Notes: a model not told the origin generated them from the letters alone. 64,000 nucleotides of DNA from an uncultured Candidatus Berkelbacteria bacterium (GCA_903877885.1 CAIRFN010000006.1:156332-220331), one strand, 5' to 3'. Positions 11,985-42,657 are shown, counted from the first letter of the stretch. Made by a program: numbers and translations.

Positions 11985-12077
11985 TCATTTGACTTGCATT
12001 TTCAATTGCTAAAATCACTAAAACGATTTTTGTTAGATGTGGATAAGTTTCAGATTAACAGGTTCGGGGTCGAACCC

Positions 12078-12105
12078 TTGACAAAGTTGACAGATCTGGT
12101 ACAAT
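12078..12105 (+). promoter_or_regulatory. sigma70-like promoter (TTGACA-16-TACAAT) upstream of the CHAP hydrolase leader
   Basis: TTGACA at 12078-12083 and TACAAT at 12100-12105. Confidence 0.45.
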
Positions 12106-12184
12106 TAAAAACGTGTTAACTAAAAAAAGCCGACAAAACGTTGGCGTTGGTTAACGCAAAGAGATCAGTAGTTGACTTACAGTA

Positions 12185-12380
12185 CTTTAAGAGGATGGGG
12201 CTCAGTTATTCGACTCTTTTCATTGGAGGTCATCATTTGTACACCCGCTCATTCGGGGCTTCAGTTTACAGCCCTCGTAAGGGGACAGGCTCAAGGGGAT
12301 GCACCAAAAACAAACCTCAAACAAAAACAAAACAAAATTGACTCAAATAACAATCTAATTGCTCTAACACGCCCATTTTG
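12185..12380 (+). promoter_or_regulatory. Structured GC-rich 5' leader (candidate riboswitch or attenuator) of the CHAP hydrolase gene
   Basis: A GC-rich block of roughly 110 nt contains the hairpin GGGGCU-UCAGUUUAC-AGCCCU and repeated AAGGGGA motifs. It is followed by an A-rich tract and a CGCCC-AUUUU-GGGCG hairpin. No canonical in-frame start precedes the signal peptide. Confidence 0.3.
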
Positions 12381-12984
12381 GGCGGGGGGATTTGTTGCTC
12401 TTGGAATTGTGGCTAGTTTATTTTTAAACGCGCCTCAAGCCCATGCGGCGATTGGTTGGAGCGATAGCATGATTGCTCAAAAAGTTTTGGCTGATGCGAC
12501 GCCGTTAGCGGTGGCGAATAACCAGCCGACTGAGTCAATTAATCCTACTGCTTCTAGCGCAGATGATTTTATCGAGAAGCCATTCGTGGCCGAGACAAAA
12601 ATCACTCCGCCGGATCCACCAAAAGTTTTGGCTTCAAGTTATCGACGGACGCCAGCCGACTATTCATTGGTCACTGGACCGCATTACTTTCCATATGGCT
12701 ATTGTACTTATTACGTTTCCCAAAAAAGAACTATTTCTTGGTCGGGAAACGCAGGGACATGGCTTAGTGGAGCAAAATCTTTTGGCTATTCGATTGGCGA
12801 TGAACCAAAACCAGGTGCCATTTTGGTAACTGCAGAAGGCGGTCGCGCCGGTCATGTAGCCTATGTTGAATCTGTTAACGCCGACAGTTTTACCGTTTCT
12901 GAAATGAACTATAAAGGTTACGGTATTGTGTCTAGTCGAACCATCCCAGATTCATATGGCGCAATCAAAGGGTTTATCTATTAA
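12358..12984 (+). CDS. Secreted CHAP-domain peptidoglycan hydrolase (amidase/endopeptidase); start uncertain
   Basis: Signal peptide ALTRPFWAGGFVALGIVASLFLNAPQAHA/A, then a CHAP domain (FPYGYCTYYV...GHVAYVESV, Cys and His spaced as expected). The frame is open back to TTG 12172, but that part is leader-like. The only start flush with the signal peptide is ATT at 12358; ATG 12466 is an alternative. Confidence 0.65.
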   Translation: MALTRPFWAGGFVALGIVASLFLNAPQAHAAIGWSDSMIAQKVLADATPLAVANNQPTESINPTASSADDFIEKPFVAETKITPPDPPKVLASSYRRTPADYSLVTGPHYFPYGYCTYYVSQKRTISWSGNAGTWLSGAKSFGYSIGDEPKPGAILVTAEGGRAGHVAYVESVNADSFTVSEMNYKGYGIVSSRTIPDSYGAIKGFIY

Positions 12985-13000
12985 TTTGGTGATATCAAAA

Positions 13001-13036
13001 AGAGGAAATCGCAACAGCGAAATCCTCTTTTTTAGT
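13001..13036. terminator. Bidirectional terminator between the CHAP gene and smpB
   Basis: A-run, gaggaaatcgc-aaca-gcgaaatcctc hairpin, T-run. Confidence 0.55.
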
Positions 13037-14037: not shown

Positions 14038-14706
14038 ATGAGAAAAGATCCGTTGGTTAATGGACAATGTTATCATATATTCAGTCGAAGCATTGCTAAA
14101 TATATTATTTTTAATAATAGCAGTGACTTTGAGAGGTTGATTGAGCTCATCGATCTTTATCGATTTAATGATTTTTTTTATAAATACTCAGGTTTTCTTG
14201 AGCTAAATGCTTTTTTTAGATTAAAATATGTAGAAGGTTTGAAACTAACGAGTTCAAAATCAGTTGAAATAATTTCTTATTCAATCATGCCGACTCATAT
14301 TCATTTAACACTTAAACAATTAGTGGATGGTGGGATTTCGAAATATATGGCAAAGATTTTGAATAGTTATACTCGATATTTTAATATTCAACATCAGAGA
14401 AAAGGCCCGTTGTGGGAGGGAAAATTTCAAAGCGTCTTAGTCAATGACGACGATCAGTTATTGCATTTAACCAGATATCATCATCTTAATCCTGTTTCGG
14501 CAGGGCTAGTTACTAAACCAGAAGATTGGACTTACTCGTCTTATAAAGAATATCTTGATGATCTAGAGGTAGATGGCTTTTGTGATTTTAAGGATCTAAT
14601 TGTTTTCAATCGTGACCAATATAAAAAATTTGTTGAAGACCGAATTGATTATCAAAAGAAATTATCAGAAATAAAACATTTAATATTTAACGATTATAGT
14701 GGTTAA
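14038..14706 (+). CDS. REP-associated tyrosine transposase (RAYT) / IS200-like HuH transposase, COG1943 family
   Basis: N-terminal YHIFSRSIAKYIIF (compare YHVxxRG..IF), HuH motif MPTHIHLTL, and a C-terminal LTRYHHLNPVSAGLV..PEDWTYSSY that resembles RayT DYIYINPVKHGWV..SDWPFSTF, including the catalytic Tyr. It is flanked by REP copies. Confidence 0.7.
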   Translation: MRKDPLVNGQCYHIFSRSIAKYIIFNNSSDFERLIELIDLYRFNDFFYKYSGFLELNAFFRLKYVEGLKLTSSKSVEIISYSIMPTHIHLTLKQLVDGGISKYMAKILNSYTRYFNIQHQRKGPLWEGKFQSVLVNDDDQLLHLTRYHHLNPVSAGLVTKPEDWTYSSYKEYLDDLEVDGFCDFKDLIVFNRDQYKKFVEDRIDYQKKLSEIKHLIFNDYSG

Positions 14707-42321: not shown

Positions 42322-42657
42322 TACGAAAAAAGCCTTAAGTAATCGATAAGCCAGGTTCTGTTTAGGCAGCATCTATCTTCGCGTCGGACCCAGTGGACAT
42401 CTGTCGAGCAGACATTGATGATAATGGGCCATCCGACTTGCACCGAGCTAGGCTTGCCACAGACATACATTACTGTATGAACGCGTGAGCTCTTACCTCA
42501 CGATTTCAACCTTACCTCCGCGGTTAGCGGATCGGCGGTATATTTTCTGTTGCGCTGTTCTCGAACCTCACGGCCCGCTCATTTTCACGAGCGCTGTACT
42601 CTTTGGTGCCTGGACTTTCCTCACTCTTGCGAGCGGAACTGCCTCGATTACTTAAGG
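42322..42657 (-). ncRNA. rnpB: RNase P RNA
   Basis: The minus-strand reading contains GAGGAAAGUCCAGGCACC (the conserved GGAAAGUCCGGGCUCC region) and ACAGAACCUGGCUUAUCG (the conserved 3' region). A 13-bp P1 helix CCUUAAGUAAUCG/CGAUUACUUAAGG is followed by a U-run. Confidence 0.8.

Follow-up and report, generated by a model that had tools for sequence, protein, structure and literature searches.

Among described RNA leaders, the ydaO/yuaA riboswitch (RF00379), with its large, pseudo-symmetric, multi-helix fold, is an example of a structured 5' leader placed ahead of cell-wall hydrolase genes. In Escherichia coli, the stabilizing 5' untranslated region (UTR) of ompA combines a hairpin at its extreme 5' end with a second hairpin and an unpaired ribosome-binding site (RBS), and infC begins at an AUU codon that serves autoregulation by initiation factor IF3, with low, IF3-sensitive translation expected from it. 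The lysM-TM7, lysM-Actino, lysM-Prevotella and M23 motifs are orphan candidate cis-regulatory RNAs located in the 5' UTRs of peptidoglycan-hydrolase-type genes; binding of cyclic di-AMP (c-di-AMP) to them was not observed, and their ligands are unknown (Weinberg et al., 2017; PMC5737381). Here we describe the leader of a CHAP peptidoglycan hydrolase gene from an uncultured Candidatus Berkelbacteria bacterium (GCA_903877885.1, CAIRFN010000006.1:156332-220331; this stretch of 64,000 nt is hereafter termed the window), in which a conserved 5' UTR, composed of a 5'-terminal hairpin (P0) and one long helix (P1) with a purine-rich loop, runs into a Shine-Dalgarno (SD) sequence and, most likely, an AUU initiation codon. 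The source bacterium is Berkelbacteria-like and belongs to the Candidate Phyla Radiation (CPR), or Patescibacteria. Regulatory RNAs are barely known in the CPR, whose genomes are small and hold few transcription factors, and the literature yielded no paper combining Berkelbacteria with a riboswitch. We consider the interval 12112-12380 to be probably the front of a monocistronic mRNA for the CHAP hydrolase, with the following parts:

12055-12062, plus strand: upstream motif TTAACAGG
12078-12105, plus strand: sigma-70-type promoter, made up of TTGACA (12078-12083), a 16-nt spacer and the extended -10 element TGgTACAAT (12097-12105)
12112-12234, plus strand: 5' UTR of about 123 nt, conserved at the nucleotide level
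12113-12157, plus strand: hairpin P0, right at the start of the predicted transcript
12158-12219, plus strand: P1 domain, with its 5' arm at 12158-12178 and its 3' arm at about 12201-12219
12169-12173 with 12204-12208, plus strand: invariant core of P1, UAGUU paired with AGUUA
12192-12200, plus strand: invariant apical loop block AGGAUGG(GG)
12225-12229, plus strand: SD sequence GGAGG, invariant in all 37 family members
12235-12237, plus strand: probable initiation codon AUU (ATT), conserved and in the CHAP frame
12235-12984, plus strand: CHAP hydrolase open reading frame (ORF) as delimited here, 249 codons plus stop

This arrangement recalls each of the systems above in part. Like the ydaO class, it is a structured leader ahead of a cell-wall hydrolase gene, but it consists of a 5' hairpin and a single long helix with a purine loop, and the RF00379 model does not match it. 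With the lysM-TM7 motif it shares an origin in a CPR phylum (TM7), whereas the lysM and M23 motifs belong to other gene families (LysM and M23, not CHAP), and Rfam 15, in which the inclusion of these motifs is unconfirmed, gave no match. As in infC, a conserved AUU start stands behind a good SD sequence; the gene, however, is unrelated to infC, its AUU forms part of a larger conserved RNA element, and a link to IF3 would be one of analogy. The layout of a hairpin at the 5' end, a second hairpin and a single-stranded RBS is that of the ompA stabilizer, although there is no homology and the invariance of helix core and loop sequence here points to a specific partner. CsrA/RsmA leaders and sponge RNAs offer a further likeness, namely AGGAYGG in a hairpin loop, a GGA in the SD sequence approximately 33 nt away and repeated GGGGA downstream, but the repeated motif is GGGGA and not the usual A(N)GGA in loops, and tblastn searches with CsrA and FliW, which covered a small part of these genomes, found nothing in the window or the homologous loci.

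The family to which this leader belongs was assembled from both protein and DNA. The 270-residue translation of the ORF retrieved 594 relatives, many of them covering 93-100% of the query, and in the protein alignment its N-terminal part, supposedly junk, contains the conserved blocks STLRGWG, (M)EVIICTP and RG..QGDAPKT.NLK. A scan of the Genome Taxonomy Database (GTDB) by protein similarity gave nine orthologous loci (L001-L009) from Berkelbacteria and other Patescibacteria, as well as 71 other CHAP loci. When the upstream DNA of the nine was aligned, conservation was found at the nucleotide level, starting at the promoter, and a degenerate DNA pattern of the element matched once in the window (12192-12241) and otherwise only in L001-L009 among the 80 CHAP loci. 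Of the 44 pattern matches in JGI metagenomes, 35 were true elements, each followed by a frame that stays open from the ATT until it enters a CHAP ortholog or the contig ends, and nine were unrelated chance matches. Six of these nine (L081, L082, L105, L109, L112, and L119) carry one common unrelated sequence, AGGATGGTTGTCAGATGG...GGAGGTGAAATATTTGTA, and thus represent a different recurrent locus.

The resulting set holds 31 distinct leader sequences including the window, and 37 with six further loci (L128, L129, L131-L134) that were fetched purely by protein identity and that all have the element, scoring 38-84 bits with a covariance model (CM). This model finds a single copy in the window (12152-12266, 95.7 bits, E = 1e-16) and one copy per true locus, and has no match in the 71 other CHAP loci; the element is restricted to the region upstream of one CHAP ortholog group in Berkelbacteria and related Patescibacteria. 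A phage origin was discarded, as viral contigs gave no match to the pattern. Across the family, identity at third codon positions in the CHAP domain is 40%, so that these positions are saturated, while segments of the leader are 64-85% identical, with no three-base periodicity.

Transcription would begin at about 12111-12112, downstream of a promoter that has 11 of 12 consensus matches together with the TG of the extended -10. All 31 distinct homologous loci have the TTGACA box, the 16-nt spacer and a -10 element of TAnAAT type, and 28 of them have the TG. Further upstream, most of the 31 loci carry TTAACAGG at a constant distance from the -35 box, and behind it a short hairpin (12061-12076) extends to the edge of this box; the region 12055-12076 may be an activator or UP-type site. 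The motif and hairpin are kept in most of the 31 loci irrespective of the orientation of the nearby gene for transfer-messenger RNA (tmRNA). Although P0 differs among loci in sequence and length, its hairpin starts 7-8 nt past the -10 box in every one of the 31, which locates it at the predicted 5' end of the mRNA, and it is more stable than shuffled sequences (mean z = -2.9; z < -1.5 in 26/31). The same constancy of position bears on the comparison with ompA/aprE-type leaders, in which the distance of P0 to the 5' end rests on the predicted start of transcription.

The second structure, P1, is carried by covariation. Its arms have the form ...GAGAG-x-RUAGUUGA, pairing with UCAGUUAU-x-CUCUC..., and the five core pairs (U-A, A-U, G-U, U-G, and U-A, thus with a tandem G-U) are invariant, as is the purine block AGGAYGG in the loop (12192-12198 in the window); some lineages accommodate an extra hairpin of 15-75 nt in this loop. 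The duplex is predicted at -10 to -18 kcal/mol in 31/31 sequences. On a plain MAFFT alignment, which was not fitted to the structure (A2), 81.6% of cells are paired, compared with 37-57% when the partners are slid, and 8/16 pairs show compensatory changes. With the CM-based alignment, compensatory changes rise to 11/16 pairs, and the covariation score is 0.369, compared with 0.222 ± 0.014 for shuffles, none of 500 of which reach this value. Where the two arms were cut out by their invariant anchors and joined gap-free (A4; 34 distinct sequences), RNAalifold predicts ten P1 pairs, five with double (compensatory) changes. Two pairs that flank the core illustrate the pattern: one is AU in 16 sequences, GC in 10, GU in 7 and UA in 1, with none broken, and the other is GC in 23, AU in 4, CG in 3 and GU in 3, with one broken. 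It is comparison with homologs, and not folding energy, that provides the evidence for structure.

No family of Rfam 15 (4227 models) was found in the leader with cmscan at gathering thresholds, applied to the window and 18 homologous loci, and at E ≤ 10, applied to the divergent leaders of the window, L009 and L005, only chance matches of at most 18.5 bits were returned, against gathering values of 38-100 bits. Known RNA families were thereby set aside, and the leader motif is a real, new orphan family of a known general kind. It is also a well populated one, with at least 37 distinct sequences, covariation support and attachment to one peptidoglycan hydrolase gene.

Downstream of P1, the RBS is short and unpaired, reading NUGGAGGU, then 4-5 nt, then AUU-UGU-ACA (12223-12243 in the window), and it lies open between structured domains in minimum free energy (MFE) folds. 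The distance from GGAGG to the ATT is 5-6 nt throughout the family (5 nt in the window), and the ATT is in the CHAP frame in 37/37 sequences. The stretch from the ATT to the hydrophobic core of the protein averages 53 codons; it is free of stops in frame 0 in 31/31 sequences, whereas frame +1 has stops in 30/31 and frame +2 in 31/31. Because frame 0 remains open despite length variation, with every indel preserving the frame, translation would begin at or just before the conserved ATT. The room upstream is limited by an in-frame stop that lies 4-56 codons before the ATT across the family: in L102 and L113 it leaves just four open codons, and in L001, L002, L005, L007 and L009 it stands 6-15 codons upstream, within the conserved element itself. 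In at least 10/31 sequences (ten by count, and L006 as well on inspection), the whole interval from the upstream stop to the hydrophobic core is devoid of ATG, GTG and TTG, and the codon preceding the ATT is variable (AUC, AUU, CAU, or CUU).

Other candidate starts were considered and rejected. The NUG of NUGGAGG, which corresponds to TTG 12223 in the window, is often not NUG, and it is in frame 0 in one clade only, that of the window, as a result of a 1-nt shorter spacer; elsewhere it falls in frame +2. The UUG that overlaps the AUU (12237-12239, frame +2), taken as a start with or without frameshifting, opens ORFs of 2-43 codons that are not conserved, and it is lost in L128, where AUUAGU retains the AUU alone. 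The best-supported start is thus most likely the AUU at 12235-12237, which is in frame, properly spaced from the SD sequence and accompanied by no conserved canonical alternative, a configuration like that of infC. This start gives a 5' UTR of approximately 123 nt and a precursor of 249 residues. It would represent natural, phylogenetically conserved AUU initiation outside infC, and, with comparative evidence of unusual clarity behind it, would serve the modeling of start codons and work on initiation fidelity.

These results confirm parts of a preliminary description of this locus and amend others. Its TTGACA/TACAAT promoter at 12078-12105 was borne out, as was its structured leader ahead of a CHAP hydrolase gene, for which the alignment of related upstream regions that it proposed yielded the compensatory changes in P1 and the P0 hairpin in 31/31 homologous loci. 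Its suggestion of unusual initiation at an ATT also probably holds, but at 12235 and not at 12358, where an Ile codon occurs in few homologs and lies approximately 40 codons inside the conserved open frame. The leader it put at about 250 nt shrinks accordingly to a 5' UTR of about 123 nt, with coding sequence from 12235. It was right that the ORF is open through the leader (from TTG 12172, to 12984). That the ORF has no canonical start is true at the family level, where at least 10/31 sequences have none, but not of the window, in which TTG 12172 and TTG 12223 are in frame. Finally, the upstream translation is not simply composition-driven junk: the part 5' of 12235 is conserved non-coding RNA, and the part 3' of it is in frame in all homologs.

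Conservation at the nucleotide level continues past the AUU, where the following features were recognized:

12238-12246, plus strand: post-start codons UGUACACCC, conserved at the nucleotide level including third positions
12244-12247 with 12254-12257, plus strand: helix P4, CCCG paired with CGGG, with CG-to-UA compensatory changes
12255-12260 with 12270-12275, plus strand: helix P5, GGGGCU paired with AGCCCU, with the variants GGAGC/GCUCC and GGGGCA/UGCCCC
within 12244-12285, plus strand: hairpin CCCU-CGUA-AGGGG, ending in the first AAGGGGA, with the family form CCCC-GNRA-GGGG
12279-12285 and 12293-12299, plus strand: AAGGGGA motifs, with GGGGA at 12281-12285 and 12295-12299

Third-position identity over 12238-12246 is 0.755, compared with 0.40 in the CHAP domain, a value that is in part fixed by the search pattern. 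The early coding hairpins occur in most clades (L007 has none), and in the family P5 (GGGGCU...AGCCCC) often encloses CUGG-N13-CCAG. The GGGGA motif is present in 46 copies in 28/31 sequences, between +15 and +140, where shuffles give an expectation of 1.6 ± 1.3 sequences (an enrichment of approximately 18-fold). Its copies are spread over the three codon phases (17/17/12), which identifies it as a nucleotide motif and not an amino-acid motif, SD-like or of GGA type. A second motif, A(A/C)CCUYA (AACCUCA at 12313-12319 in the window, in codons for Asn-Leu), occurs in 15/31 sequences with its Leu codon limited to CUY, and AACCUCA is perfectly complementary to the GAGGUU at the SD sequence. The smaller structures of the preliminary description can be placed among these: the repeated AAGGGGA proved to be two copies, the GGGGCU/AGCCCU hairpin is P5, and the A-rich tract lies at about 12303-12357. 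A CGCCC-AUUUU-GGGCG hairpin exists as well, but it sits at 12370-12384, in the codons for TRPFWAG, and not at 12336-12350, and it is not conserved. The block described there as GC-rich has a GC content of 0.42-0.51, equal to that of the CHAP coding region (0.42-0.52) and high only by comparison with the A-rich tract and intergenic DNA.

The explanation we favor, and hold to be probable, is that the leader, with its conserved structured 5' UTR and an AUU start, is a throttle that limits a potentially autolytic enzyme at the post-transcriptional level. This view builds on the promoter, P0 and P1, the nucleotide-level conservation, the exclusive association with one gene, the conservation of frame and the fact that a third of the family lacks any canonical start. 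The near-consensus and very strong promoter would supply the mRNA, P0 would protect its 5' end, and the AUU would keep translation low and sensitive to initiation fidelity (IF3). The invariant core and loop of P1, which lie beside the RBS, could form an operator at which a specific partner tunes access of the 30S subunit. An RNA-binding protein is our first guess for this partner, on account of the invariant helix core with its tandem G-U pairs and the GGA-rich motifs; a small ligand would be the second. From the AUU, ribosomes would then translate in turn a cytoplasmic tail rich in Lys, Asn and Gln, the signal or anchor segment and the CHAP domain. Control of a wall hydrolase that is potentially autolytic or host-directed would be relevant to division and attachment in these presumed episymbionts.

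Several observations weigh against this explanation. The start of transcription and the actual use of the AUU are predicted from sequence, as are any regulation and the identity of a partner, and in the window TTG 12223 is in frame and could be a minor start. In 22/37 sequences, which were fetched with the pattern, the loop block, the SD sequence and AUUUGUA were in part prescribed by it, so that invariance in these places arises partly by construction; among the 15 loci fetched by protein similarity, deviations from the fixed positions occur in three cases, at one position each. On the alignments at full length (A2, and the CM alignment A3, which places the 5' arm of P1 wrongly in sequences with long insertions), RNAalifold returned zero consensus pairs, and it recovers P1 only on the anchor-registered arms; the folding z-scores of the window itself are modest (-1.41 for 12112-12400 and -2.10 for 12112-12245). 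Candidate switch helices, namely the small loop hairpin (P3), an SD:ACAYCC hairpin and pairings of the loop block with the post-start ACAYCC or CCCG, are approximately 80% pairing-compatible and show no covariation, since their columns hardly vary. Duplexes between the SD sequence and the downstream AACCUCA motif have energies no better than shuffles (mean z = -0.18). A conserved structured leader is thus established, and a switching mechanism is not.

A more ambitious version of the throttle can be put forward only tentatively. Under it, P0, P1 and the loop would constitute a new regulatory RNA class specific to Berkelbacteria-type CPR, either an orphan riboswitch or a protein-operated operator, that couples hydrolase synthesis to an envelope or growth signal with an obligatory AUU. 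P4-P6 and the GGGGA motifs, which extend ~65 nt into the coding sequence, would belong to this device as well.

It is doubtful that the element is an orphan small-molecule riboswitch, in which P1 and its loop would form an aptamer for an envelope metabolite or second messenger and the ligand would alter access to the SD sequence and AUU. Such a switch would fit the conserved structured 5' UTR, its invariant unpaired nucleotides and tolerance of a variable-length insertion, and the exclusive tie to one gene family; wall-hydrolase genes are also known targets of the ydaO, lysM-TM7, lysM-Actino, lysM-Prevotella and M23 motifs (PMC5737381). Yet the conserved nucleotides are surrounded by one covarying helix only. 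Neither a multi-helix junction nor a pseudoknot or alternative pairing is supported, no known class matches, and an invariant helix core is more like a protein operator than an aptamer. Nor is an intrinsic terminator conserved in the leader: a U-tract follows P1 in some clades only, and attenuation by this route was rejected.

We are about equally skeptical that the leader is constitutive and does not switch at all, in the manner of ompA/aprE, with P0 and P1 stabilizing the mRNA, the RBS single-stranded, and AGGAYGG and GGGGA acting as standby sites for a weak AUU. The 5'-terminal hairpin in 31/31 loci, the unpaired RBS in MFE folds, the enrichment of GGGGA in all three codon phases and the lack of covariation in any switch helix are what such a leader would predict. 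A stabilizer, however, needs no helix core and loop that stay invariant across lineages with saturated synonymous sites, and invariance of this kind usually indicates a specific binding partner.

Very improbable is an N-terminal extension of the protein, translated from the canonical TTG at 12172 or 12223 and conserved as protein. The ORF is indeed open from 12172, and public calls for homologs cover 93-100% of the 270-residue translation, but seven loci (L001, L002, L005, L007, L009, L102, and L113) have in-frame stops within the element, at least 10/31 sequences offer no canonical start, and the frame of NUGGAGG shifts among clades. Furthermore, conservation does not drop at third codon positions relative to the first two, codon periodicity is absent and the P1 arms covary, so that conservation at the protein level was rejected. 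Least credible of all is the preliminary proposal, in which a c-di-AMP riboswitch of the ydaO type precedes a start at ATT 12358. Genes of this class are typical members of ydaO regulons, but the Rfam scan that was proposed as a check gave no RF00379 match in three leaders even at E ≤ 10, ATT 12358 is not conserved, and all homologs keep frame 0 open over the approximately 40 codons that precede it.

The encoded protein can be divided as follows:

12238-12360, plus strand: Lys/Asn/Gln-rich tail, cytoplasmic in the proposed model
12361-12447, plus strand: hydrophobic signal or anchor segment, ending AHA|A
12688-12909, plus strand: CHAP domain

The assignment to CHAP (PF05257) is firm, at 60.6 bits against a cut-off of 26 (E = 2e-16), and agrees with the preliminary description in this respect. 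The catalytic Cys (in GYCTYY) and His (in GHVAYV) are invariant in 30 homologs, and the closest solved structures are the CHAP domains 2lrj and 2k3a. Sec-type features can be read straight from the translation, in the form of a K-rich tail, FWAGGFVALGIVASLFL and APQAHA|A, and are consistent with either a signal peptide or a signal anchor. Homologs of this family are called inconsistently in public annotation: some calls reach into the 5' UTR (270 residues from TTG 12172, inside helix P1), and others begin in the hydrophobic core and thereby lose the signal peptide (P0018, P0020, P0033, P0055, P0078, and P0084). Both kinds would result from the AUU start having been missed, which would account for a systematic annotation error in this CHAP family.

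The CHAP gene is flanked by the tmRNA gene and smpB:

11945-11624, minus strand: tmRNA gene (ssrA), found in the Rfam scan
12997-13033, between the CHAP gene and smpB: terminator hairpin (-19 kcal/mol, z = -4.64) with an A-tract and a U-tract at its sides
13468-13052, minus strand: smpB, convergent to the CHAP gene

The hairpin at 12997-13033 is probably a bidirectional terminator common to the convergent CHAP and smpB genes. The order ssrA-CHAP-smpB recurs, with the tmRNA gene no more than ~1.3 kb away in 14/18 homologous loci, and smpB is found 3' of the CHAP gene on the opposite strand, with zero or one ORF between, in every contig fetched via protein similarity. A dUTPase gene comes next in most such contigs, followed by genes for dCMP deaminase and thymidylate synthase where the contig is long enough. 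A leader that mimics or partially copies the neighboring tmRNA might explain this synteny with ssrA and smpB; the idea was dropped, as local alignments of the two in six loci are no better than shuffles (z ≤ 1.44). Adjoining the smpB region, a 222-residue ORF at 14038-14706 on the plus strand has a weak match to Y1 transposase (PF01797) and recurs at this position where other samples yielded identical contigs. Elsewhere in the window, a class A RNase P RNA lies at 42331-42655 on the minus strand (154 bits).

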